This document shows positions 11,019 through 61,503 of a stretch of DNA of 64,000 nucleotides, piece by piece. Where the stretch lies: contig OZ243039.1 of NCBI GenBank assembly GCA_965212025.1, positions 879,216 through 943,215 on the forward strand. The letters run 5' to 3'. The position numbers and the translations under genes were made by a program. Position 1 is the first letter of the stretch; every line of letters starts with the position of its first letter. A model generated the notes under the pieces. The model did not search any database, had not been told where the DNA came from, and saw only the letters and a program-made list of their open reading frames with translations. The DNA comes from Candidatus Oxydemutatoraceae bacterium (GTDB taxonomy: Bacteria > Pseudomonadota > Gammaproteobacteria > Poriferisulfidales > Oxydemutatoraceae).

Positions 11019-12361
11019 GTCTGGAGGAAATCAGGATCATCTGTGGTGGGGTGATGTTAGGTGCCAATTGTTTTCCGGACAAGGTCAGCATTGACAGCAG
11101 AACCGTGCAGAAGGGGGAACTGTTTGTGGCTCTGAAGGGTTCGAATTTTGATGGCCACGACTACGTGGCCGATTGTGCCGCCAGAGGGTGCTGTGCTGCC
11201 ATGGTCAGTCGACCCTGCGCCGTTGCTTTGCCTATGGTTTTGGTGCCCGACACGCTAAGCGCTTTGGGGAAATTGGCCGCGGCATGGCGTGAGCGTTTTG
11301 CTTTGAAAGTTCTGGCTTTGACCGGCAGCAACGGGAAAACGACGACCAAAGAAATGCTTGCTTCCATACTGCGCGTTCTGGGCAATGTCTTGGCGAATCA
11401 CGGAAATTTTAACAACCATATCGGAGTGCCTTTGACCTTGTTGGGTCTGCGTGAAAAACACCGTTTTGCAGTGATTGAAATGGGAGCCAGCCGGCGTGGT
11501 GACATTCGTGAGCTGTGTGCTTTGGCAAAGCCTGAGGCGAGCTTGGTTACCAATGTAGCTCCGGCACACCTGCTTGAATTTGGCACTTTGGAAGGTGTGG
11601 CAGCGGGCAAGGGTGAGATTTTTGAAAGTTTGCCCGATAACGGAGTCGGAGCGATCAATCGTGACGACCGCTTCTATTCTTTTTGGCAACAGCTACTGGG
11701 CAAGCGCCGCCGGATTACTTTTTCGATAAAGCAGGAGGCAGAGCTCAGAGCAGACACGACAGCGTTCAGGGAAAGCGGAAATTTTTATTTGACAATTGGA
11801 AAAGAAAAACGCGCGGTTCGCCTGCAATTGAAAGGAGAGCACAACGTGCAAAACGCTTTGGCGGCATCCGCGCTTGGGCACGCGGCGGGTGCAGACATTG
11901 ACGCGATTGTCCAAGGGCTGGAAGCGACGGTTCCACTGCCGAGTCGTCTGTTTTTTCTTTCCGGGCCTCGGGGCATGAAGCTGATTGATGACAGCTACAA
12001 CGCCAACCCAGGTTCCCTGCTCGCGGGCTTGCAGGTTCTGGGCGAATGCGAAGGAGAACGCTGGCTGGCGTTGGCAGATATGGTGGAGCTTGGCGATGCC
12101 ACCGACTACTGGCATGAGCAGTGCGGTCACGAAGCGAAGCGATATCAGGTAAAGCGTCTGTTCGCCTGTGGCAGTCATGCGCAAAAAGCCGCTCACAGTT
12201 TTGGACAGGGAGGCGAGTGTTTCAGTTCCTTTGCGGACATGTCCAAAGCCATGAAAGCACTGGCACACCCGGGCGTGACTTTGCTGGTGAAGGGATCGCG
12301 CAGCTCCCATGCCGAGGAATTGATTGCCGAGCTGACGCGTGGAGGGACTGTAAGATGCTGA
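11006..12361 (+). CDS. murF: UDP-N-acetylmuramoyl-tripeptide--D-alanyl-D-alanine ligase
   Basis: The Mur ligase motif [13 protein letters not shown] is present and the gene is in the MurF position. Confidence 0.9.
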
Positions 12362-13437
12362 TAGTTCTGGCCGATTACCTCACGCAATTTCACGATGGAT
12401 TTCAAGTCTTCCAGTACATCACTTTGCGCGCCGTGCTAAGCGTCCTGACTGCCTTGTCGCTGAGCTTTGTTTTTGGCCCCAAATTGATCGCTTCCCTGAA
12501 TCGGCACAAAGCCGGACAAAACATCCGGACAGATGGACCGCCAAGCCATTACTACAAGCAGGGGGTTCCGACCATGGGCGGCGGGCTGATTATTTTTTCT
12601 GTGGTGGTCAGCACTTTCCTGTGGGCCGATCTGGGCAATCGCTACGTGTTGATCGTGCTTTTTTCCATGCTGGCCTTTGCCGTGATTGGCGGGGTGGACG
12701 ACATCACCAAATTGCGCTCCGGGCAAAGCCAGGGCTTGCGTGCCAGAGAAAAATTCGCGATGCAGGTGGTCGCCGGAGTCGTCGTGAGTCTGCTGATCTA
12801 CAGCACCACAGAGCTGCCAGTGGAAACCCAGCTGATTGTGCCTTTCTTCAAAGAACTTGTCCTCTCGATGGGTGCTTACTTCCTGGTGCTGACTTTTCTG
12901 GTTATTGTGGGATCCAGTAATGCGATGAATCTCAGTGACGGTCTGGATGGTCTTGCCGTCATGCCGACCGTGATGATTGCGGGTGGGCTGGCAGTCTTTG
13001 CTTATGCCAGTGGTCACATCACTTTCTCACAATATCTGGGAATTCCCAACTTGCCACTGGCTGGAGAGCTGGCGATTCTTTGTGGAGCCATCATTGGTTC
13101 CGGTCTGGGCTTTTTATGGTTTAACGCCTACCCGGCACAAATGTTCATGGGGGACTTGGGTTCTTTGGCGTTGGGGGCGGCGTTGGGAACGATTGCCGTG
13201 CTGGTTCGCCAGGAAATCGTTTTTTTGATCATGGGCGGTGTGCTGGTGGCGGAAACGCTGTCTGTCTTCGTGCAAGTCGGCTATTTCAAGCTGACCGGGC
13301 GGCGTGTTTTTCTGATGGCGCCCTTACACCATCACTTGGAATTGCTGGGTTGGCCCGAGCCACGCGTCATTGTGCGCTTTTGGATTATCACGCTGATTCT
13401 GGTGCTGATAGGGCTATCCACTTTGAAAATCCGGTAG
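12355..13437 (+). CDS. mraY: Phospho-N-acetylmuramoyl-pentapeptide-transferase
   Basis: The N-terminus [27 protein letters not shown] is MraY-like and the protein is a multi-TM membrane protein. The start overlaps the murF stop (ATGCTGA). The 5' extension of the tracked ORF was rejected. Confidence 0.9.
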
Positions 13438-13442
13438 CTGGG

Positions 13443-14810
13443 ATGGTACTGGACAACGGTTACTCGGTGGTTGTTGGGCTCGGCAAAACCGGCCTCTCGG
13501 TCGCGCACTACCTGTTGCGAAACGGGCGGAATTTCGTGGTCATGGACAGCCGTCCAAAGCCGCCTGAACGAGAGGCTTTGAAGCGGCATGCCCCGCAGTT
13601 AAAGGTTGGGCCTTTGGATGAGCAGCTTTTGCGCGGCTCCGATGAAATTATTTTAAGTCCCGGCATGCCACTGTCACACCCTGCGATCGCCGAGGCTTCG
13701 CGTTCCGGAGTGCCGATTATCGGAGACGTGGAACTTTTTGCCCGCGCGATTCATGCCGGACAAAAAGTCGCCGCGATTACCGGCACCAATGGCAAAAGTA
13801 CGGTTTCCCATTTGCTGAACAATATGGCAAGAAACTGTGGTCTGAAAGTTGCGCTCGGTGGCAATGTCGGAACCCCCGTTCTGGACTTGCTTGCCCAACC
13901 CGGTCCGGAACTGTACGTGTTGGAACTGTCGAGTTTTCAGTTGGAAAGTACGCATTCCCTGCGCGCCACAGTGGCGGCAATTTTGAATGTTGCTGAGGAT
14001 CACCTGGACCGTCACCGGAATCTGGATGCCTACGCAAATGCCAAAGCGCGCATTCTCGATGGCTGCGAGTCGGCGGTTATCGGGCGAAGTTGCGTAGAAA
14101 GATTCGCGTCCCGTACACCCGGGAAAACGGTGACTTTTGGTGAAGATGAGCCGGGTGAAGGGCATTTCGGCCTGCTAGAAACGGAGAATGGTCGGGAAAT
14201 CTTCCGTGGAAACACACGGCTGGTTGCGGGTTCTGAGCTTGCCGGATTGCCGGGAATGGACGGCTTGCAAAACGCGCAAGCGGCACTGGCACTCGGGGAG
14301 GCATTTGGCCTCCCCTATCCTGGCATGCTGGAGGCACTCGCCGCTTTCCGGGGTTTGCCACACCGCTTCCGCGAAATTGGAACTTTAGGTGGTGTGATCT
14401 GGATTGACGATTCCAAGGCCACCAATGTTGCTGCCGCCACTGCTTCTTTACGGCGTGTGAAGGGTCACTGTGTATGGATTGCCGGCGGTGATGGTAAAGG
14501 AGCTGATTTCAGCCCCCTGGCTGCGGCGGCAAAGCAATGGGCGCACAGTGCCCTGCTGCTAGGTCGTGACGCACGGCAAATCGCAAAAGTGATCGGCAAC
14601 GCGATTCCGGTTCATCTCTGTGACGATTTGGGTGAAGCCGTCAGATGCGCCGCAGGGCTTGCGCGGGAAGGAGGTTGCGTGTTGCTGGCGCCGGGGTGTG
14701 CCAGCCTGGATATGTTTGAAAACTATGCCGACCGTGGCCGATGTTTTGCCAAAGCTTTCGAGTCTCTTCGCCAGGAACATTTTGCCAAAAGTGAAAATGA
14801 TGCAGCTTAA
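13443..14810 (+). CDS. murD: UDP-N-acetylmuramoylalanine--D-glutamate ligase
   Basis: The N-terminus MVLDNGYSVVVGLGKTGLS is MurD-like and the Mur ligase motif ITGTNGKSTV is present. Confidence 0.9.
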   Translation: MVLDNGYSVVVGLGKTGLSVAHYLLRNGRNFVVMDSRPKPPEREALKRHAPQLKVGPLDEQLLRGSDEIILSPGMPLSHPAIAEASRSGVPIIGDVELFARAIHAGQKVAAITGTNGKSTVSHLLNNMARNCGLKVALGGNVGTPVLDLLAQPGPELYVLELSSFQLESTHSLRATVAAILNVAEDHLDRHRNLDAYANAKARILDGCESAVIGRSCVERFASRTPGKTVTFGEDEPGEGHFGLLETENGREIFRGNTRLVAGSELAGLPGMDGLQNAQAALALGEAFGLPYPGMLEALAAFRGLPHRFREIGTLGGVIWIDDSKATNVAAATASLRRVKGHCVWIAGGDGKGADFSPLAAAAKQWAHSALLLGRDARQIAKVIGNAIPVHLCDDLGEAVRCAAGLAREGGCVLLAPGCASLDMFENYADRGRCFAKAFESLRQEHFAKSENDAA

Positions 14811-22318: not shown

Positions 22319-23524
22319 ATGTTTCAGCTTTCAGAAAGAGGCGTGCAGCCAATTTCCATTAAAAAGGCTGGTGTGCAGCCAACAAACATCAAAGTGGTCG
22401 GTGTAGGTGGCTGCGGCTGTAACACCATCAACTTCATGTACGACGAGAAAATTGAAGGTGTTCAATATATCGTCGCAAATACTGACCTTCAGTGTTTGCA
22501 GGCAAGTCGGTGCGAAGACACGATACAACTTGGTGCCAGTAGTTCTGGTGGTCAAGGCGCTGGTGCCGACCCGGAAAAGGCACGCGAGTTTGCCGAAGAG
22601 GATCGAGAGGAGATTCGTGAACGGCTAGAGGGCAGCAATATGGTTTTTATCGCCGCCGGTATGGGTGGTGGTACGGGAACCGGAGCGTCACCGGTTTTTT
22701 CTGAAATCGCACGCAAATCTGATGCGCTCACAGTGGCTGTGGTTACCATGCCTTTCGATTTTGAGGGAGGTGCGCGCAAGAAAATTGCCGAGGAAGGACT
22801 GCGTGAGTTACGTAAAACAGTTGACTCGCTCATCGTGATTCCGAATGAACGAATGTTGAGCATATTGGATAAAGATGTGTCTTTTTCTGAAGCTTGCGCA
22901 TCTGCCAACAAAGTTCTTTATGACGCGGTAAAGGGTATTGCAGAATTGATTACACGGGTAGGTTTCATTAATTTGGACTTTGAAGATGTCAAGAGAGTGA
23001 TGACCAAAATGGGAGATGCCGTGATCGGTACGGGAACCGCAAGTGGAGAGCAACGTGCATACGACGCGGTGACAGCTGCCATTCAGAACCCCTTGTTGGA
23101 TGAAGTGGATCTCCAGGGTGTTCGAGGCGTCCTGGTCAACATCACTGCCAACGAAAAATTTGGGCTGAGAGAGGCTGAAGAAATTGGCAAGGTTATCAGG
23201 ACGATTGCTGACAAAGACGCCCTTATATCAATAGGTGTGGTAATAGAGGAAAGCATGGGCGATGATCTGCGTGTCACCTTGGTTGCCACAGGGTTGGTTG
23301 GCAACACCAAAAAGGAGGAACAGGACTCTCCCGCAAAAGACAGGGTCTTTGCTACACCAAAGCCAGTGTCGCTTACCCCAAGCCCGACCCTCAACTACGA
23401 TGCCTATGACTCACCTGCCTTTGAGCGCAAAAGCAAATATGGCGTTGAGGCGCCGAGTAGTCCTGGGTCTGAGGTTGGAGAACTTCTTGACGTGCCCGCT
23501 TTTCTGAATAAGCAGGCGGATTAA
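22319..23524 (+). CDS. ftsZ: Cell division protein FtsZ
   Basis: GVGGCGCN and AGMGGGTGTGASPV are tubulin/FtsZ motifs, and the C-terminal conserved peptide DVPAFLNKQAD is present. AAGGAG lies upstream of the ATG at 22319. Confidence 0.95.
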   Translation: MFQLSERGVQPISIKKAGVQPTNIKVVGVGGCGCNTINFMYDEKIEGVQYIVANTDLQCLQASRCEDTIQLGASSSGGQGAGADPEKAREFAEEDREEIRERLEGSNMVFIAAGMGGGTGTGASPVFSEIARKSDALTVAVVTMPFDFEGGARKKIAEEGLRELRKTVDSLIVIPNERMLSILDKDVSFSEACASANKVLYDAVKGIAELITRVGFINLDFEDVKRVMTKMGDAVIGTGTASGEQRAYDAVTAAIQNPLLDEVDLQGVRGVLVNITANEKFGLREAEEIGKVIRTIADKDALISIGVVIEESMGDDLRVTLVATGLVGNTKKEEQDSPAKDRVFATPKPVSLTPSPTLNYDAYDSPAFERKSKYGVEAPSSPGSEVGELLDVPAFLNKQAD

Positions 23525-24272
23525 CCAACTGGCATCGTGCCGCCAACAAAATATTTTTTTTGGATTGTCTTGCCTGCAGTACGCACTTGTCACGGTCTGT
23601 AAGACCGGTATGTATTGTCCGGGCGACTGCCCAGTGACACAGCCTGCAATTTCACAAGCTGGTGGAATGTTCGTTGTGTCGCTGGTGCAGTAAGGCGTCC
23701 ATCCTGTCAGGACGGGTGTCTGTCATTTTTCCCGTGCGGCGTTTCTGCCATGGCCTTACAAAGTCTGGCTTAATGGCCAAGCCCCCATCTTCTTATAAAC
23801 ACCAAATACGCCCCTGAGTCACGTGGCCTTCATTAGAAAACAAAGTCTTTGAGCGCAAAAGCAAATATGGCGTTGAGGCGCCGAGTAGTCCCGAGCCTGA
23901 GGTTGGAGAACTTCTTGACGTGCCTGCTTTTCTGAATAAGCAGGCGGATTGACCAACTGGCATCGCGCCGCCAACAAAATATTTTTTTTTGGATTGTCTT
24001 GCCTGCAGTACGCACTTGTCACGGTCTGTAAGACCGGTATGTATTGTCCGGGCGACTGCCCAGTGACACAGCCTGCAATTTCACAAGCTGGTGGAATGTC
24101 CGTTGTGTCGCTGGTGCAGTAAGGCGTCCATCCTGTCAGGACGGGTGTCTGTCATTTTTCCCGTGCGGCGTTTCTGCCATGGCCTTACAAAGTCTGGCTT
24201 AATGGCCAAGCCCCCATCTGCTTATAAACACCAAATACTGCCCCTGAATCACGTAGCCTTTATCAGGAAACA
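23418..24272. repeat. Direct duplication of about 428 bp (2 copies) covering the last ~105 nt of ftsZ and ~320 bp downstream
   Basis: The sequence from about 23418 (TTTGAGCGCAAAAGCAAATATGGCG...) recurs nearly identically from about 23846. Copy 2 carries an in-frame FtsZ tail fragment (...FERKSKYGVEAPSSPEPEVGELLDVPAFLNKQAD*) with no start codon. Confidence 0.85.
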
Positions 24273-25460
24273 AAACCTTTTCGCGTCTTGCGCGCTTAAA
24301 AAACAAGCTGACTTGTGTCCCAACCCCACCGATACACTGCCTCAAGAAAACCACGCCCCCCCACTTTATAAACATCAAATACTGCCCCTGGATCGCATGG
24401 CTCTTATTAGAAAACAAAACCTTTTCGTGTCTTTTACGCTTAAAAAACAAGCTGACTTGTGTCCCAACCCCACCGATACACTATCTCAAGAAAACCACGC
24501 CCCCCCACTTTATAAACATCAAATACTGCCCCTGAATCACGTAGCCTTTATCAGGAAACAAAACCTTTTCGCGTCTTTCGCGCTTAAAAAACAAGCTGAC
24601 TTGTGTCCCAACCCCACCGATACACTGTCTCAAGAGAACCACGCCCCAACACTTTATAAACATCAAATACACCCCTGAATCACGTAGCCTTTATCAGGAA
24701 ACAAAACCTTTTCGCGTCTTGCGCGCTTAAAAAACAAGCTGACTTGTGTCCCAACCCCACCGATACACTGCCTCAAGAAAACCACGCCCCCCCTCTTTAT
24801 AAACACCAAATACGCCCCTGAATCACGTAGCCTTTATCAGGAAACAAAACCTTTTCGCGTCTTGCGCGCTTAAAAAACAAGCTGACTTGTGTCCCAACCC
24901 CACCGATACACTGTCTCAAGAAAACCACGCCCCCCCACTTTATAAACATCAAATACTGCCCCTGAATCACGTAGCCTTTATCAGGAAACAAAACCTTTTC
25001 GCGTCTTGCGCGCTTAAAAAACAAGCTGACTTGTGTCCCAACCCCACCGATACACTGTCTCAAGAAAACCACGCCCCCCCACTTTATAAACATCAAATAC
25101 TGCCCCTGGATCGCATGGCTCTTATTAGAAAACAAAACCTTTTCGTGTCTTTTACGCTTAAAAAACAAGCTGACTTGTGTCCCAACCCCACCGATACACT
25201 GTCTCAAGAGAACCACGCCCCACCACTTTATAAACATCAAATACACCCCTGAATCACATGGCCTTTATCAGGAAACAAAACCTTTTCGCGTCTTGCGCGC
25301 TTAAAAAACAAGCTGACTTGTGTCCCAACCCCACCGATACACTGCCTCAAGAAAACCACGCCCCCCCACTTTATAAACATCAAATGCTGCCCCTGAATCA
25401 CATGGCCTTCATTAGAAAACAAAACCTTTTCGCGTCTTTTACGCTTAAAAAACAAACAGA
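24222..25460. repeat. Tandem array of about 8.6 copies of a 143/144-bp unit (minisatellite-like)
   Basis: Successive starts of TTATAAACA fall at 24222, 24366, 24510, 24654, 24797, 24940, 25084, 25228 and 25371, giving periods of 144,144,144,143,143,144,144,143. Units are over 90% identical. The first ~60 nt of the unit is homologous to the end of the 428-bp duplicated unit. Confidence 0.9.
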
Positions 25461-25498
25461 CTTGCGCGTTTTTCCGGTTATTAAGTTTGCGTATGTCT

Positions 25499-27094
25499 TC
25501 AGCGAACCATACCGCCCAAAAAGACTTTCAGGCGCAATATTGGCTCTGGCTCTTCCAGCACCTGGATCAGGGGAATCAGGCTGCCAGAGTGACTCACTCC
25601 TGGCGCTTCAGCCACGCTGTTCCGGGGGAACGCCCGGACTTCGTGTTCAGCACCACCCGGCACTCCCCAAAAATTCACCATGCCAGCTTCTGCCGATGTC
25701 GGCAAATCAATATGCTGCTCCATTATCAGATCTCCAACTGACAGTTGTATCCGGCACTTCAGGTCAAGCGGCACTTCATCAACTGCGGTTGCAAAGTCAG
25801 CATGGTGCGTGGCGCGTCCATAACCGTCATCTCCCAGATATTTCAGGTGTACCCGTACATGGCCATGTGCTTCGGATGTCAGTTGCATGGCCAATGTCCC
25901 TTCAAGAACGTCGAGCAAAGTAAATGCCGCCGTGCCCATCGCGCCTGCTCCGGCGCGGTTGACTGCCTGGAGCGAATAGCGTATCTGCCCCCCTCCTGCG
26001 TACGCCTCGCGTAGCTGCGCCAAGGCATGGCCTGACAGCACATAAGAAGTGCCGGTTCCCGCGATGGTATAGCGTTTTCTGTCCAGGGAAAGCCGGTAGC
26101 TGTCTATCGTCGCCCCGTTGCTGCTCGCCGCTTCCCAACCCAGGTTCACCCGATTTGTGGACTTCCATCTGGCCCGCAAACCTGAAGGTCTGCCAGGCAC
26201 CGCTATGGTGCTGAACGTGCCCCAGTTTTCGGATCCCCGGGCGAGCACCCCAACGCCCTTTCGGTTACTCGCGTAGACCTGTAAGCCATAGCTTCTGTAC
26301 GGCAGCAAGTGACCAATCTCAATCTCAGTGGCAAAGGTACCTGACGGGAAAAAAGTCTCGGTGCTGCGCCCTGCAGCACTCACAACCACCACGTAGCCAA
26401 AACCAGAGCCCGCAGCGCGATCAGGAGAAGCCGCAGGCGCATCGACCGCCAGGGAAGCGCAACCGTCACGTCTCATGGTCGCCAGCACCAGGCGAGCAGT
26501 GGTCTGCCCAGGCACAAGCTCCGTTATCGTCGTCGTGCCCGGAAGCCCCGGCAAATGGAAGTGACCGGTTGCGGGGTAGCCAACGACATCTCCGTGCACA
26601 GCGCGCAGCTGGTACGGGTGGGGGCAAGCCCCTTGGCTGTTTTCCCGAAACCCGGCCAGAAAATCTCCGTCAAAGTCAAAAGTCAGCGCTGTGACTTTCC
26701 GCATTGTTCCTGCCAGCTTGAGTTCGTAGTAATCGACCGCTGAACTTCCCGCCGCCCACGTGAAGCGCAGGTGATCCAGAGATTCCCAGCTCACCGCCAA
26801 ATCAACCGGTGTGGCAGGAATATCGGCAAGCGCACGCAGCAATGGCAGCGTGTGGGCATTGCCAAAATGCCAGGCTCCCGGTTCCCAGCCGGCATAAGTC
26901 GTGGCACCTTCGCATACCTGCCCCGCCACGGTCGGACAACGCAGCTGGGTCAGAGTACGGGGTGAAGCGCCACCCGTTGGGCCACTGCCCACCAAAGCTG
27001 CCCTCGCAGACACGGGGGCGTAACTGCGGTCAATCGCAGCGTCCGGACTCAGAATGGCCCACCAGACTGCCGATGCTGCCCGATTCCCCAACAA
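25499..27094 (-). pseudogene. C-terminal continuation of the giant GLUG-repeat protein, separated from the upstream ORF by a frameshift
   Basis: The N-terminal part (...AIDRSYAPVSARAALVGSGPTGGASPRTLTQLRCPTVAGQVCEGATTYAGWEPGAWHFGNAHTLPLLRAL) continues the module pattern of the 2909-aa ORF. The two frames overlap at 27030-27094. Fn3-like segments follow. Confidence 0.6.
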
Positions 27095-55442: not shown

Positions 55443-55928
55443 CTAAAGCTGGGTCGGGTTGGGTTGCCCGCCATACACTGTTTCCGGGTCAATCAATTTT
55501 TCGCGTATCGTGCGTTGCAACTGTATGGTCTCACTGGTTTTTCCAACCGGGATTTTCCGATAGAAGCAAGAGCGGTAACCGACGTGGCAACTGACAGTCC
55601 CGGCAACGATCACGCGTAGCCATAAAGCGTCCTGATCATCGTCAACCAGCATCTCCCGGACTTCCTGAACAAAACCGCTGACTTCGCCTTTGCGCCAGAG
55701 TGCCTTTCGGCTTCTGCTCCAGTAATGAGCCTGTCCGGTTTCGACGGTTTTCAAAAGTGCAGTGGCGTTCATATAAGCGTGCATCAGCACCTCGCCGCTG
55801 TGAAAGTCAGTCGTCACAACCGGGATCAGACCGTCTTTGTCAAACTTTGGGGCGAAGTCCGTACCTTCTTCCACTTGGGCGACTTCGAGACGTGGAGCGA
55901 AAGGCCCTGCTTTTATTTCAGCCATCAA
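55443..55928 (-). CDS. hisI: Phosphoribosyl-AMP cyclohydrolase
   Basis: [41 protein letters not shown] is the HisI signature. It is a stand-alone gene, not fused to hisE. Confidence 0.85.
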
Positions 55929-55931
55929 TTT

Positions 55932-56183
55932 TTAGCTCTGCTGCTTTTCTTTGGAGCGTACAGGTACGGGGTCATGACCCCCTTCGTTCCAAGGGTGGCA
56001 ACGTGCGATTCTTTTCAACGTGAGCCACACACCACGCATGGTACCGTATTCACGCAGACATTCTATGGCGTACATTGAACAGGTGGGAGTGAACCGGCAA
56101 TGCATTCCAAGCCAGGGGCTGACCAGATAGCGATAGGCTTTGATCGTCTCGATCAGCAAGTTTTTCACTGCCATCGCCGCCAC
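55932..56183 (-). CDS. yidD: Membrane protein insertion efficiency factor YidD (copy 1)
   Basis: [74 protein letters not shown] is the YidD/DUF37 signature. Confidence 0.8.
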   Translation of the reverse strand: MAAMAVKNLLIETIKAYRYLVSPWLGMHCRFTPTCSMYAIECLREYGTMRGVWLTLKRIARCHPWNEGGHDPVPVRSKEKQQS

Positions 56184-56411
56184 ACGGTTTTGGTGTGCAA
56201 ATCTTCCAGCGTGACACCGGCTTCGTGCAGTTGCGCACGGATTTCGTCAGCGCGAGAAAAATCGCCCGCTTCGCGAGCCGCCTTTCGCTTGGTGATCCAT
56301 TCCTCCACTTCCTGGTCGGCAATCTTGAATGCATGTTCCGACTCCCAGCGAAACCAGGTCTGTTTCGGGACGTGGAGCGAAAGGCTCTGCTTTTATTTCA
56401 GCCATCAATTT

Positions 56412-56660
56412 TTAGCTCTGCTGCTTTTCTTTGGAGCGTACAGGTACGGGGTCATGGCCCCCTTCGTTCCAATGGCAACGTGCGATTCTTTTCAACGTGA
56501 GCCACACACCACGCATGGTACCGTATTCACGCAGACATTCTATGGCGTACATTGAACAGGTGGGAGTGAACCGGCAATGCATTCCAAGCCAGGGGCTGAC
56601 CAGATAGCGATAGGCTTTGATCGTCGCGATCAGCAAGTTTTTCACTGCCATCGCCGCCAC
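56412..56660 (-). CDS. yidD: YidD (copy 2, 82 aa, one residue shorter)
   Basis: It differs from copy 1 only by E12A and an in-frame 3-bp deletion ([10 protein letters not shown] becomes RCHWNEGGH). Confidence 0.7.
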
Positions 56661-56888
56661 ACGGTTTTGGTGTGCAAATCTTCCAGCGTGACACCGGCTT
56701 CGTGCAGTTGCGCACGGATTTCGTCAGCGCGAGAAAAATCGCCCGCTTCGCGAGCCGCCTTTCGCTTGGTGATCCATTCCTCTACTTCCTGGTCGGCAAT
56801 CTTGAACGCATGTTCCGACTCCCGGCGAAACCAGGTCTGTTTCGGGACGTGGAGCGAAAGGCCCTGCTTTTATTTCAGCCATCAATTT

Positions 56889-57140
56889 TTAGCTCTGCTG
56901 CTTTTCTTTGGAGCGTACAGGTACGGGGTCATGGCCCCCTTCGTTCCAAGGGTGGCAACGTGCGATTCTTTTCAACGTGAGCCACACACCACGCATGGTA
57001 CCGTATTCACGCAGACATTCTATGGCGTACATTGAACAGGTGGGAGTGAACCGGCAATGCATTCCAAGCCAGGGGCTGACCAGATAGCGATAGGCTTTGA
57101 TCGTCGCGATCAGCAAGTTTTTCACTGCCATCGCCGCCAC
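56889..57140 (-). CDS. yidD: YidD (copy 3, adjacent to full-length cysS)
   Basis: Its start overlaps the cysS stop (ATGGCAGTGA), which is the ancestral arrangement. Confidence 0.8.
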
Positions 57141-58495
57141 ACGGTTTTGGTGTGCAAATCTTCCAGCGTGACACCGGCTTCGTGCAGTTGCGCACGGATT
57201 TCGTCAGCGCGAGAAAAATCGCCCGCTTCGCGAGCCGCCTTTCGCTTGGTGATCCATTCCTCTACTTCCTGGTCGGCAATCTTGAACGCATGTTCCGACT
57301 CCCAGCGAAACCAGGTCTGTGGTGATTGTTGGAGCAAACCCAGGCAGGAGGCAGCTGACAACAAAGAAAATGCATCACCAGCATTCGCCAGGGCGTGCAG
57401 TCCGGTCAGCGCTTGCGGGGTATTCAAGTCTTCGCCAAGTGATTCCAGAACGATCGTGCCATCCTGTTTGTCGATGTTTCCCTGATTCTGAAAATCTGCG
57501 AAGTCCTGGTCGGAAAAAGCGCGATACAGCCGATCCAGCGCTGCCTTGGCGTGTACCAGTGTTTGCTTCGACCAGTCCAGTGGCTTGCGGTAATGGGTGT
57601 TCAGCAAGGCATAGCGAATGGTTTCACCGTGGTGCCTGCTCAGAACCTCGCGCAAAGTCACGAAGTTCCCGAGTGATTTGGCCATTTTTTCATTTTTAAC
57701 GGTGACATGGCCATTGTGCAGCCAGTAACGCGCAAAAACATCGGTGCCGTGTGCGCGGCAACTTTGCGCAATTTCATTTTCATGGTGCGGAAAAACCAAG
57801 TCATGGCCGCCACCGTGAATGTCTATGGTTTGTCCCAAATGGGTTGCTGCCATGGCTGAACATTCGATGTGCCAGCCGGGTCTGCCCCGTCCCCAGGGAC
57901 TGTCCCAGCCAGGATGCTCCGGGGTCGATGGTTTCCACAGCACGAAATCGGTGGGTGCCCGCTTGTAGGAAGCGACTTCCACCCGGGCTCCAGCACGCAG
58001 TTGCTCAGTCTGTCGTCCAGACAGGCACCCGTAGTGGCGCCAGGAGCTGATGTCGAACAGCACGTGCCCTTCGGCCTCGTAAGCGGAGCCATTGGCAAGC
58101 AGGCGTTCGATCATCGCGATCATGTAAGGCACGTGTTCGGTCGCCTTGGGCTCAGTTGTTGGGGGAAGCAGCCCCAGTTTCCCGGAGTCTTCCGAGAACG
58201 CACGTCCGTATTTTTCTGCGACATCGCTCGCTGTCACACCGGTGGCTTGCGAAGCAGCAATGATTTTGTCGTCTATATCGGTAACGTTTCGCAAATAGAG
58301 GACTTCTCTGTAGTATTTTTTCAGGAGGCGGTAAAGCGTGTCGAACACCACCAGAGGGCGGGCGTTGCCAATGTGAACGTAGTCATAGACAGTCGGACCA
58401 CACACATACATGGTGACCCGATCCTTGTCCAGCGGTCTGAAAACGTCCTGCTTGGCCGAAAGCGTGTTGTACAGCCTGATCTGCATGGCTTTCAA
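57122..58495 (-). CDS. cysS: Cysteine--tRNA ligase
   Basis: The HIGH motif ([15 protein letters not shown]), the KMSKS-type motif (KMAKSLGN) and a zinc-binding Cys are present. Confidence 0.95.
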
Positions 58496-58518: not shown

Positions 58519-61503
58519 TTATTCATTTTCGTCCGTTTCAACCTGTGTGTACTGTTTGGTCACCCGTGCAAAAGTGCTGCGTGGTTGCACGTCTTTTTCA
58601 GTGACAGCTTCTGTTTCCCGTGTGGCTTCCAGGTTGGCAGCGTAGGGTTCAGCGGAACCGGCCGCCGGTTCAGAAGTGCTGTGTGTTTGCGTGTCTTTTT
58701 CAGTGACAGGCTCTGTTTCCCGTGTGACTCCCAGGTTGGCAGCATGCAGTTCAGCGGGACTGGCCGCCGGTTCAAAGGTGCTGTGTGTTTGCGTGTCTTT
58801 TTCAGTGACAGGCTCTGTTTCCCGTGTGGCTTCCAGGCTGGCAACATGCAGTTCAGCGGGACTGGCTCGCCTGGGCCCGGTACCTGTCATCGTGCCAACT
58901 CTGCCCGCAGGGGCAAAGAATTTTGTTGTCCCATTATTTCGTTGCTGACCGGTTTTTCCAAAAGAAGACGCAGGTACAGGTGTGTTCCTGCTTTCTCCCG
59001 ATGTCGGGCGTGACATGTTTTCCGGCCTCGGCTCAAATTGCTCCGAGCCTGTCTCATTCCGCCTTCTCTGCCGCGCAGGCTGCTGACGTTTTCCCATGCT
59101 TGCGGATCGCTGCCACTCCATTCCTACCGGTTCATGTCTTGTTTCAGTCCTCACGGAGCTCCGTTGCGAGGCTCTCTCCGGGCGGTCATGTTGGCGCTGT
59201 GACCCATACTGTTGACCAGCTCTTATCGGTTCCTGTTGCCGTTGCGCAGGCTCATACTGTCTGCCCGCCCCCACCGGTTCACGTTGCCGGCGAGTAGATC
59301 CATACTGCCGGTTTGTCCTGAGCGGTTCCTGTTGCCGCCGTACAGGTTCGTACCGTCCATCCTCTCGCACCGGCTCTTGTTGTTCATGCACTGCCCGGTG
59401 TTGCACTTGCGCGCCTCTGGATTGCGACGCTTCCTCACCAGGGAAGAGATTTTCTTCATAAGGTCTATTGGTTCGTCTGTTCATTTTTCTTTTGACACCG
59501 GGGTAACGCTCTGAGGCGAATTGCCTTCTGGAGTCGCCATTCTGATTTGCCTGGAAGTCATCCTGACCCTGCGAAGAACGGCGGGATTGACTTTTTTCAG
59601 TTACCGGTGGTGAAGCAATTTCCGAACCGGAGTCATAGCGGGAGGAAAATCCCGCATTATGCCTGCCGTAAGACGAACGTGAACGACCTCCTCTGATCGG
59701 CCGCCCGGCTGAGTCCGAAATTTGTCGCCCTCTCTCCTTGTACGTAGCCCTACTGGTTTGGTGACTGGTCGACGAGGCTCGGCCAGGAACTTGAGCACGG
59801 TCTTCCGGGGAGCTTTTTTGCTCCTTGACCGGCTTGGGTGACGAGGAGAAAAACTTGCCAAACCAGCGACCCAAAAGGCCGCCAACTTGCTTTTCCCCGT
59901 GTGCGGAAGCTTTTATCGGGGTCACTCCCGTCTGTTCAGTCTCAGGAGCGGAAGGTTGCGTATATCTCAGTTGCGCCGGGTAGTTGCCATTCGCAGCAGG
60001 TTTTGTTTTGAAAGCCTCTGGGGATTGGTCGGTACGAAAGCCCTTGATTTCAAAGTTGGGGTTTTTCATGCCCGGAACCGGGATCATAAACAGAGTGACT
60101 TTGTGCTGTGACTCAAGCTTATCCACCTCATTGCGCTTTTCGTTCAGAAAATACGCAGCCATTTCCACAGGCAGCTTTGCCACCACCGACACGATCTGTT
60201 CTTGCTCGGCCTCGCGCACAATGGAACGGAACACCTCCAAAGTATTGGATTCAATGGTACGTACCCAGCCGCTTCCATCACAGTGCTGGCAAATCAGATG
60301 GCTCGACTCGCTAAGTGATGTGCGTAGTCGCTGACGTGACATTTCAAGCAGTCCAAAGCTGGAGATATTGCCAATCTGGTTCTGTGCCCGGTCGTATCTC
60401 ATGGAGCGACGCATGACGTCTTCCACGGTTTCACGGTCTTTATCCGAGACCATGTCAATAAAATCAACGACGATAAGGCCGCCGGCATCCCTCAGCCTGA
60501 GTTGCAAGGCAATTTCTTTTGCTGCTTCCACATTCGTGTTCAGAGCCGTGGTTCCAATGTCAGCCCCGCGGATCGACTTGGCAGAATTGACGTCTATGGA
60601 CAGTAGCGCCTCTGTTTGGTCGAAAACAATTTTTCCGCCTTGGGGGAGGTCAGTTATCCGCTCAAAAGCGGTTCCAATTTTTGCCTCAATTTTGTAGGTG
60701 GTGAACAGCGGGGAGTCACCGTCATGCATCATGATTTTGTCGATCTGTGTAGGCATGGAAGTTTCCATGTAACGTTTCGCCTCTTCGTAGACATCCGGGT
60801 TGTCAAAAATCACTTTTTCAACATCGGATCCCATGTGATCGCGTAGCGTATGGATGACCACGTTTCCCTCACGGTAGATGAGGGACGGCGGTTTCTCGGT
60901 TCTCGCCAGGTTGACAATGTCTTGCCACAGGTTCCTGAGGTTGTTCAGGTCCCACATCAATTCTTCTTCACCGCGTCCAATACTTGCTGTTCTTAAAATG
61001 ATGCCTTCGCTGGGCTGATACTTAGTATTCGAAAAAATATCCTGCATGTGGGCACGATGGCTTTCTTTGGCATGTTTGGTGATTCGCATGCCTGACCAAG
61101 GGCTGTTCGGCATCAAAACCAGGAAACGGCCGGGGATTCTTATGTAGGTAGAAAGCAGAGCCCCTTTATTGCCAATTTCGCCTCGATTCAGCTGTACAAG
61201 AAGCTCTTGTCCCTCTTTGACGAAGCCGCGGTTTGAGTCTTCCCCTTCAGAAGGCGACCCGATATTTTTGCTGAAGTCGCGGGCAATTCCCTTGAACGGC
61301 AGAAAGCCATGCTTTGCCTCGCCGTAGTCAACGAAGACAGCGTTCAGTCCCCTCTCTACGCGGGCGACTGTGGCCTTGTAGATGTTTCCTTTAAGCTGCT
61401 TCCGGTGAGAGCTTTCTATGTTGAGATCTTGTAATTCCGTCCCCTGGAGGATGGCTACGCGCACCTCTTCTTTGTGCGTAGCGTTGACAAGGATATTTTT
61501 CAT
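58519..61503 (-). CDS. rne: Ribonuclease E
   Basis: The N-terminal catalytic region (S1 domain, DNase I-like fold, Zn-link) aligns with E. coli RNase E (MKNILVNATHKEEVRVAILQG...). A long Arg/Pro/Glu-rich C-terminal scaffold gives 994 aa. Confidence 0.9.
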   Translation of the reverse strand: MKNILVNATHKEEVRVAILQGTELQDLNIESSHRKQLKGNIYKATVARVERGLNAVFVDYGEAKHGFLPFKGIARDFSKNIGSPSEGEDSNRGFVKEGQELLVQLNRGEIGNKGALLSTYIRIPGRFLVLMPNSPWSGMRITKHAKESHRAHMQDIFSNTKYQPSEGIILRTASIGRGEEELMWDLNNLRNLWQDIVNLARTEKPPSLIYREGNVVIHTLRDHMGSDVEKVIFDNPDVYEEAKRYMETSMPTQIDKIMMHDGDSPLFTTYKIEAKIGTAFERITDLPQGGKIVFDQTEALLSIDVNSAKSIRGADIGTTALNTNVEAAKEIALQLRLRDAGGLIVVDFIDMVSDKDRETVEDVMRRSMRYDRAQNQIGNISSFGLLEMSRQRLRTSLSESSHLICQHCDGSGWVRTIESNTLEVFRSIVREAEQEQIVSVVAKLPVEMAAYFLNEKRNEVDKLESQHKVTLFMIPVPGMKNPNFEIKGFRTDQSPEAFKTKPAANGNYPAQLRYTQPSAPETEQTGVTPIKASAHGEKQVGGLLGRWFGKFFSSSPKPVKEQKSSPEDRAQVPGRASSTSHQTSRATYKERGRQISDSAGRPIRGGRSRSSYGRHNAGFSSRYDSGSEIASPPVTEKSQSRRSSQGQDDFQANQNGDSRRQFASERYPGVKRKMNRRTNRPYEENLFPGEEASQSRGAQVQHRAVHEQQEPVREDGRYEPVRRQQEPLRTNRQYGSTRRQREPVGAGRQYEPAQRQQEPIRAGQQYGSQRQHDRPERASQRSSVRTETRHEPVGMEWQRSASMGKRQQPARQRRRNETGSEQFEPRPENMSRPTSGESRNTPVPASSFGKTGQQRNNGTTKFFAPAGRVGTMTGTGPRRASPAELHVASLEATRETEPVTEKDTQTHSTFEPAASPAELHAANLGVTRETEPVTEKDTQTHSTSEPAAGSAEPYAANLEATRETEAVTEKDVQPRSTFARVTKQYTQVETDENE
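58574..58880. repeat. 3 copies of a 102-bp (34-codon) tandem repeat in the rne C-terminal scaffold coding region
   Basis: The unit start GTGCT recurs at 58574, 58676 and 58778. It encodes repeats of the form ...RETEPVTEKDTQTHSTxEPAAxxAE.... Confidence 0.8.

Follow-up and report, generated by a model that had tools for sequence, protein, structure and literature searches.

A 144-bp tandem array between ftsZ and a convergent surface-protein gene in a sponge-associated gammaproteobacterium, probably a minisatellite grown in place

The 64,000-nucleotide stretch of contig OZ243039.1 analysed here (hereafter the window) comes from Candidatus Oxydemutatoraceae bacterium, a sponge-associated gammaproteobacterium, and carries at 24222-25464 a tandem array of 143/144-bp units. 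This array is placed between two convergent genes, ftsZ on the plus strand and a GLUG/fn3 surface-protein gene on the minus strand, the latter being referred to as the giant gene in what follows. The explanation that we favour, with a probability of about 0.6, is that of a non-coding minisatellite, which would have grown locally within the spacer separating these two genes. Its physiological consequence is most likely passive, the array providing 1.2 kb of untranslated DNA that separates two convergent transcription units. As in minisatellites generally, the units follow one another head-to-tail with no intervening unique sequence, and the region between the stops at 23524 and 25499 is non-coding. 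The comparisons presented below involve one genome of the species that bears the array and two relatives, L001 and L073. The array itself comprises the following elements:

24222 to 25370, no strand: eight full units, u1 to u8, with spacings between successive unit starts, and hence lengths, of 144, 144, 144, 143, 143, 144, 144, and 143 bp
25371 to 25464, no strand: ninth, partial unit u9, repeat-like over ~95 nt, then passing into unique 3' untranslated region (3' UTR), which reaches the stop of the minus-strand open reading frame (ORF) at 25499-25501
24293 to 24338, no strand: 46-nt core CGCTTAAAAAACAAGCTGACTTGTGTCCCAACCCCACCGATACACT, u1 copy, invariant in 8/8 units
24437-24482, 24581-24626, 24724-24769, 24867-24912, 25011-25056, 25155-25200, and 25298-25343: the other copies of the 46-nt core

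Tandem Repeats Finder assigns to this array a period of 144, 8.7 copies and 92% matches, with no indel columns at period 144, which corresponds to the eight full units and the partial one. About 8.6 copies of a 143/144-bp unit had been described between ftsZ and the giant gene in the original prediction, and every detail of it that could be checked was correct. When anchored on TTATAAACA, the units start at 24222, 24366, 24510, 24654, 24797, 24940, 25084, 25228, and 25371, and an additional copy of the head of the unit (its first 55 nt) is found at 23793, where it closes the first of two 429-bp units described below. A 28-nt core of the unit has eight exact occurrences in the window, versus 0.00 expected in shuffled sequences. 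The array is also AT-richer than its surroundings, as previously noted, with a G+C content of 0.45-0.47, compared to 0.50-0.53 towards ftsZ and 0.55-0.64 towards the giant gene. The small imperfect palindrome CGCGTCTTGCGCG, initially attributed to the unit as such, is present in five of the nine units; u3 carries the variant CGCGTCTTTCGCG, in which the stem is kept and a single base of the loop is altered, while the remaining three have CGTGTCTTTTACG or CGCGTCTTTTACG at this position. Other, partial resemblances were picked up by eye, of TTATAAACA to a DnaA box (7/9), of CACGTG to the parS core, and of ATCAA to an IHF site, none of which was used in the interpretation.

Searching for the unit elsewhere, a check proposed along with the original prediction, returned this single locus only. 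Neither the remainder of the window nor L001 or L073 contains the repeat; the 28-mer, the 22-mer core, and a conserved flanking 22-mer gave no match in collections of genomes, metagenomes, and viral contigs, and blastn against plasmids gave no match with the repeat either.

Two types of units can be distinguished, type I (u1, u3, u4, u5, u6, and u8) and type II (u2 and u7), which differ from each other at 13-18 positions, nearly all of them within unit columns 26-71; u6 and u7 are for instance separated by 12 transitions and 2 transversions. There is, in addition, a higher-order similarity between pairs of units, u1 resembling u6, u2 resembling u7, and u4 resembling u8, which points to the duplication of multi-unit blocks, as unequal crossover yields. 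Across the eight full units, 21 columns are variable and none of them falls inside the 46-nt core (Fisher p=2e-4). This structure also bears on the possibility of an assembly artefact, i.e., a repeat that was collapsed or inflated, or a consensus of long reads that is chimeric, which deserves consideration given that the source appears to be a metagenome-assembled contig of 1.9 Mb. Structured differences between units (two types, a 1-nt indel, higher-order blocks) are unlike those of an artefactual duplication, the 1.2-kb array is far below typical long-read size, and the independent assembly of a related species bears a different tandem duplication at the same locus. We thus regard an artefact as very improbable.

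Most of the unit is of local origin. Its left ~95 nt, which run from TTATAAACA through CCTGAATCAC..TCAGGAAACAAAACCTTTTCGCGTCTTGCGCGCTTAAAAAACAAGCTGACTTG, recur in the partial unit u9, and their central segment occurs once in the homologous spacer of L001. Since this part is common to u9 and to the L001 spacer, it represents the ancestral spacer, i.e., the 3' UTR of the giant gene; together with the homologous copy of the head of the unit (55 nt) at 23793, this indicates that the array was built from local sequence. The right ~50 nt of the unit are C-rich (TGTCCCAACCCCACCGATACACTGTCTCAAGAAAACCACGCCCCCCCACT), and their source sequence was not detected. A derivation of this right third from the last codons of the minus-strand gene, suggested by eye (TGTCT..AACCA..CGCCC), was rejected, the local alignment score of 13 being no better than the shuffle mean of 13.2.

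The lineage is very sparsely sampled: in a search of 5.8 billion protein clusters, no more than two relatives of FtsZ exceeded 52% identity. One of them (78%) is encoded by L001, a metagenome-assembled genome labelled 'uncultured candidatus Porisulfidus sp.', and the other (66%) by L073, a third genome; 'Candidatus Porisulfidus' is a gammaproteobacterial genus of sponge symbionts (PMC12988363). L001 is the only relative with the same spacer and it displays, at the same spot, a tandem duplication of 239 bp in 2.6 copies, with different junctions. In its units, the final 44-60 codons of the giant gene are joined to the same 3' UTR segment. This 239-bp duplication is independent of the array, so that tandem duplication has occurred recurrently here, and the differing repeat shows instability of the locus, as distinct from copy-number polymorphism of this array.

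Two other observations were made in L001. Within the duplication (11584-12208), the extra copies keep an open frame ending in KKLRLKVFLGG[LM]VR*, and may represent either silent cassettes for the C-terminus or mere debris of the duplication. In addition, a 33-bp in-frame coding repeat (EEPEPTPPQVA, five copies) is found at the C-terminus of the giant gene (12176-12339). Downstream of ftsZ in L073, neither the giant gene nor the repeat is present; the region from ftsZ to purB (11186-14362) contains small ORFs and an rve_3 transposase in place of the giant gene. The block carrying this gene is thus either an insertion in the lineage of the window and L001, or has been lost in L073.

Directly upstream of the array, Tandem Repeats Finder reports 2.0 copies of a 429-bp unit (23419-24274, 96%), which overlaps the 3' end of ftsZ as well as the first unit:

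23419 to 23847, plus strand: first 429-bp copy, made up of the final 106 nt of ftsZ, its conserved 3' region (~270 nt), and a 55-nt unit head (23793-23847)
23848 to 24274, plus strand: second 429-bp copy, with a relic of the C-terminal 35 codons of FtsZ and the 3' region again (23953-24221), running into unit 1
23525 to 23792, plus strand: ftsZ 3' region, conserved and probably structured, within the duplicated block and outside the 144-bp array; second copy at 23953-24221

As read from the sequence, the junction between the two copies, AAAGTCTTT|GAGCGC, sits at a 4-nt CTTT microhomology. The duplicated tail of ftsZ is a dead copy: the TGA at 23815-23817 closes the FtsZ frame upstream and no start codon follows, from which the C-terminal relic of the second copy is predicted to be non-expressed. 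The two copies differ at 10/374 positions of their ftsZ-derived part and at 8/55 positions of the repeat head (Fisher p=7e-4); the array-resident portion is hence ~5 times more diverged than the remainder, as expected if unit 1 has been homogenised with the other units. Local seeding of the array from the end of the adjacent duplicated unit had been proposed. The head of the unit is indeed common to the end of the 429-bp duplication; however, this duplication was probably copied into a pre-existing repeat head, rather than seeding the array, and a local source could be demonstrated only for the left ~95 nt of the unit.

The ftsZ 3' region is of interest in its own right, as a candidate structured 3' UTR of ftsZ or small RNA that the 429-bp repeat has copied whole. 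The ~270 nt that follow the ftsZ stop are 86% identical to L001 11210-11460, compared to 84.5% for the ftsZ coding DNA. Their fold z-score relative to shuffled sequences is -4.2 on the plus strand and -1.7 on the minus strand, with -1.45 for the plus strand of L001. No match was found in an Rfam search of this region, and its small ORFs show no conservation at the protein level between the window and L001.

Taken together, these data suggest the following history for the minisatellite. A segment of the giant-gene 3' UTR with two quasi-palindromic hairpins would first have been duplicated by an illegitimate event, at the level of microhomology. From these two copies, replication slippage and unequal homologous recombination could then have led to about nine units, including by duplication of multi-unit blocks, and concerted evolution would have held the units alike. 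The 429-bp duplication, from the interior of ftsZ to the head of the first unit, would have come later, thereby adding the dead tail of ftsZ. We infer both this mechanism of slippage and unequal crossover and the lack of a sequence-specific function of the array.

The reading frames of the array argue for its non-coding nature. One frame per strand is open across the 144-bp unit, giving ORFs of 195, 121, and 149 amino acids; the 143-bp units, in turn, end every frame, and the longest ORF (195 amino acids) is stopped by one of them. None of the array ORFs reaches the Pfam cut-off and the longest has no homologue among the 5.8 billion protein clusters. These ORFs had already been interpreted as by-products of the periodicity, with the mixture of 143- and 144-bp units breaking any long frame, and the continuous conserved ORF that would have contradicted this view was not found. 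A decayed or frameshifted protein-coding repeat, for example a former extension of the giant protein, would explain why one frame per strand is open, and the duplicated units of L001 do carry the last codons of the giant gene with their frame intact. Such an origin is nonetheless highly improbable, in view of the interrupted frames, of the lack of a Pfam domain or homologue, and of the substitutions between unit types, which are mostly non-synonymous in the open frame of the plus strand (12 substitutions resulting in 7 amino-acid changes). In addition, the right third of the unit aligns with the 3' end of the gene no better than shuffled sequence.

That the units could be structured RNA repeats, as also envisaged in the original prediction, was not borne out. 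At the gathering threshold, Rfam 15 gives no match in the array, and at E-values up to 10 the only two matches are chance ones to microRNAs, outside the array; no tRNA or tmRNA genes were found. The fold z-scores of single units versus shuffles range from -0.3 to -1.9 on the plus strand and from -0.7 to +1.6 on the minus strand, none being significant, and those of the whole array are -0.2 (plus) and +1.75 (minus). In the two variable hairpins, 86.7% of cells pair across 12 copies from both species, versus 86.9% in shuffles. Two candidates were rejected along these lines. On the minus strand, a structure predicted by RNAalifold at -30.6 kcal/mol contains many G-U-compatible changes, but shuffled sequences of the same, G+U-rich composition fold equally well. 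Likewise, a compensatory change from C-G to U-A in the small CGCG hairpin shows no excess of covariation over shuffled controls (12 copies, including those of L001). Lastly, a consensus scan of 24222-25464 detected no sigma-70-like promoter and no terminator-like site, other promoter types being outside the scan.

A functional role has to be weighed nonetheless, in particular for the 46-nt core. Each unit could be a functional module, in which the core would be a protein-binding site, forming a platform similar to those of sopC or of iterons, or the active part of a regulatory RNA present in repeated form. The invariance of the core in all eight units, next to variable neighbours, is in line with this idea. 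On the plus strand, moreover, the modelled core can form a hairpin, UGUGUC-CCAACCCCACC-GAUACA, with a C-rich loop reminiscent of the seed loops of some small RNAs; this hairpin is present in the plus-strand consensus fold of all units, the z-scores of this strand are mildly negative (-1.0 to -1.9), and the compensatory C-G to U-A change mentioned above, together with several G-U-compatible transitions, favours the same strand. However, these z-scores are insignificant and covariation in the two variable hairpins equals that of shuffled controls, while the pairs of the core never vary and are hence uninformative either way. No unit has a promoter-like site or an Rfam match. The core is additionally absent from L001, L073, and all collections searched, and is therefore not conserved even in the closest relative. 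As for a partition or iteron site, the immediate neighbours of the array are FtsA, FtsZ, and the fn3/GLUG ORFs, with no par or rep gene among them, nor any other partition or DNA-binding gene adjacent. Finally, recent amplification and conversion of the flanks from outside paralogues could explain the identity of the core. We thus consider it unlikely that the units are modules of this kind.

Another role is suggested by base composition. With 33% C and 13% G, the plus strand of the array has a median C/G ratio of 2.43 in 78-nt windows, a value that is reached by 0.9% of the windows elsewhere, on both strands of the 64 kb. Rho loads onto untranslated RNA downstream of a gene over at least ~80 nt that are C-rich, G-poor, and weakly structured; the plus strand of the array corresponds to this description as far as composition is concerned. 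The array might therefore be kept as an insulator of the two convergent transcription units. On the plus strand, ftsZ read-through RNA (1.2 kb, untranslated, C-rich, and G-poor) would load Rho, thereby halting the polymerase before it transcribes antisense to the giant gene, an activity that is conceivable but doubtful. On the minus strand, weak hairpins followed by U-runs in each unit may help to stop read-through from the giant gene into ftsZ. In support of this, not only is the C/G ratio in the top 1% of the window, but the fold of the plus strand is also weak (-16 to -19 kcal/mol per 144 nt). The T-runs that follow hairpins, in ACAAG-TCAG-CTTGT-TTTTTT and CGCG..CGCG-AAAAGG-TTTTGTTT, are all on the minus strand, the array sits exactly between the convergent genes, and the same 3' UTR segment has been amplified in both species. 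Several points nevertheless argue against an insulator. The scan revealed no terminator-like site in the array, whose hairpins have only 2-4 G-C pairs, while ftsZ already has its own conserved 3' region, upstream of the array, where the scan identified two hairpins resembling terminators. In this genome, a high C content is common to antisense strands in general, and the skew may thus stem from the context of a minus-strand gene. Besides, a single unit would suffice and nothing shows a need for eight. Overall, an insulating role appears as a tentative possibility rather than a probable one.

Even though a non-coding minisatellite grown in place remains our preferred explanation, several of the above observations do not sit easily with it. 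While the core is invariant in 8/8 units, the adjoining 46 nt are 26% different between the unit types, almost entirely by transitions. Such uneven variation is not predicted by uniform neutral decay, and requires that the core be under selection, that hairpins drive mutation, or that flanking paralogues act as donors in conversion. Type II units also retain states that are common to L001 and lost in the flanking u9, indicating that some unit lineages are old and that the variable segment carries old variation; the array may accordingly have been retained for a long time. The extreme strand skew hints at a strand-specific property, and selection, rather than a hotspot, could be behind the recurrent duplication of this spot in two species. 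These points can be accommodated in different ways. Conversion from flanking paralogues could account for an invariant core next to a variable neighbour, such paralogues existing only for the left part of the unit, and multi-base changes of the quasi-palindrome type, or selection on the core, could contribute as well. In the hairpin segments of u9, the states are intermediate between both unit types and L001. Alternatively, the array as a whole would be a selected multi-copy element, its core being selected as a protein-binding platform beside ftsZ or as a regulatory or sponge RNA with a C-rich loop. We give this little credence; if true, the independent amplification in 'Ca. Porisulfidus' would reflect selection on dosage.

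The systems that most resemble the array, when taken as a minisatellite, are found in other host-associated bacteria. VNTR-141 of Wolbachia, a variable-number tandem repeat (VNTR), is intergenic, has a period of 141 bp and 7.3 copies in the wMel strain, and contains internal hairpins that are thought to trigger slippage; repeats of this type have been explained by hairpin-triggered slipped-strand mispairing and concerted evolution (PMC3287509). The array shares with VNTR-141 and VNTR-105 a large period (144 bp here, versus 141 and 105 bp) and an intergenic location in a host-associated bacterium (PMC3287509), and with VNTR-141 a similar copy number (8.7 here), hairpins in each period, and the lack of coding capacity or known function. 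In contrast, the periods of the Wolbachia repeats are 98-99% identical and their copy number varies between strains, whereas the units described here are 92% identical, fall into two types, and are known from one genome. Furthermore, there is no sequence similarity between them, and the present array abuts gene ends and is tied to a duplication of the 3' end of ftsZ.

Of the 64-kb window, 4373 bp (6.8%) belong to tandem repeats with a score of 80 or more, including those inside the giant gene. For comparison, tandem repeats make up 6.3% of the genome of Ehrlichia ruminantium, 1.6% of that of Wolbachia wMel, and 0.38% of that of Escherichia coli K12 (PMC3287509, Table 4). The load of the window is thus far above that of E. 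coli K12 and close to that of E. ruminantium, and it is as high as in the most repeat-rich bacterial genome listed in that study (PMC3287509). The repeats of E. ruminantium also resemble the array in their mean period (139 bp), copy number (4.8), and match (91.6%), in addition to the load. Collins et al. are said to have found in 2005 that these repeats are mostly intergenic and actively variable in copy number, and sometimes take gene ends along. E. ruminantium belongs, however, to the Rickettsiales, and its load is that of a whole genome, whereas the bacterium studied here is gammaproteobacterial and sponge-associated, with a load calculated from 64 kb only.

Other systems are more distant. 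Like the VNTRs formed by mycobacterial interspersed repetitive units (MIRUs), the array is an intergenic tandem repeat between genes. MIRUs are tens to ~100 bp long, form one family dispersed at ~40 loci, and often contain small ORFs that overlap their neighbours; the present repeat, in contrast, is found at a single locus. The sopC site of plasmid F consists of 12 repeats of 43 bp. As in sopC and iteron arrays, the direct repeats have no spacers and there is a short inverted repeat per unit, but the units are three times as long here, no gene for partition or replication initiation lies next to the array, and it is the palindromes that vary while the invariant part is non-palindromic. The intergenic LhrC1-4 small RNAs of Listeria provide another parallel, with tandem units of ~110-145 nt and C-rich motifs that can be presented in a hairpin loop. 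The LhrC copies, however, are each equipped with a promoter and a terminator, which were not found here, nor was there any support from folding or covariation. Lastly, the regularly spaced direct repeats and the small palindrome recall a CRISPR (clustered regularly interspaced short palindromic repeats) array. This had been dismissed from the outset on account of the missing spacers, and rightly so: CRISPR arrays have repeats of about 21-48 bp with unique spacers of similar length, whereas the units here are 143/144 bp long and directly abut one another, with no cas genes among the neighbours examined.

On either side, the array is bordered by the following genes:

22319 to 23524, plus strand: ftsZ, last gene of the dcw cluster, with a likely ATG at 22319; Pfam Tubulin (1.9e-49) and FtsZ_C (4.4e-28)
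25499 to 27094, minus strand: 531-amino-acid fn3 ORF, the C-terminal part of the giant gene, converging on the array; corresponds in alignments to the C-terminus of the undivided giant ORF in L001
27030 to 35759, minus strand: 2909-amino-acid "giant gene" ORF; Pfam Glug (1.5e-76) and fn3 (3.1e-10), with an M26-N-like region

FtsZ is 100% identical to P0001, and is preceded on the plus strand by FtsA, also identified with Pfam, at the end of the dcw cluster. The giant ORF itself holds internal coding repeats of 78/246 bp. A frame change of one base, located around 27040-27060 and close to GGCCATTCTGAGTCCGGAC, which is not a homopolymer, divides the giant GLUG/fn3 gene into its two ORFs, while the homologue in L001 is a single ORF; this split (27030-27094) could mean that the gene is a pseudogene, that the sequence contains an error, or that the frameshift is genuine. 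A replication terminus at the array was also considered and rejected: GC skew flips sign there, yet it merely tracks gene orientation across the window.

Tandem duplications are found elsewhere in the window as well. A 480-bp unit is repeated 3.0 times at 55884-57320, with 98% identity, giving rise to three tandem YidD-like ORFs of 82-83 amino acids; each copy additionally bears the first ~13 codons of the adjoining hisI-like ORF, and one copy has a one-codon deletion. In addition, a 102-bp unit is repeated three times (58569-58871, 89% match) inside a 994-amino-acid minus-strand ORF (58519-61503).

What we have described suggests that the genome, or at least this locus, is prone to tandem duplication, and the duplications of the window together suggest that the genome may be as repeat-prone as that of E. 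ruminantium. As it stands, the array is an ordinary case among the large-period intergenic tandem repeats of host-associated bacteria. It calls for caution in annotation, since the array ORFs of up to 195 amino acids are spurious and the tail of ftsZ is partly duplicated, and it is also a candidate strain-typing marker for an uncultured lineage of sponge symbionts. Should the core, or the composition that resembles a Rho loading site, turn out to be functional, the locus would exemplify a repeat array co-opted as an insulator of convergent transcription beside an essential division gene.

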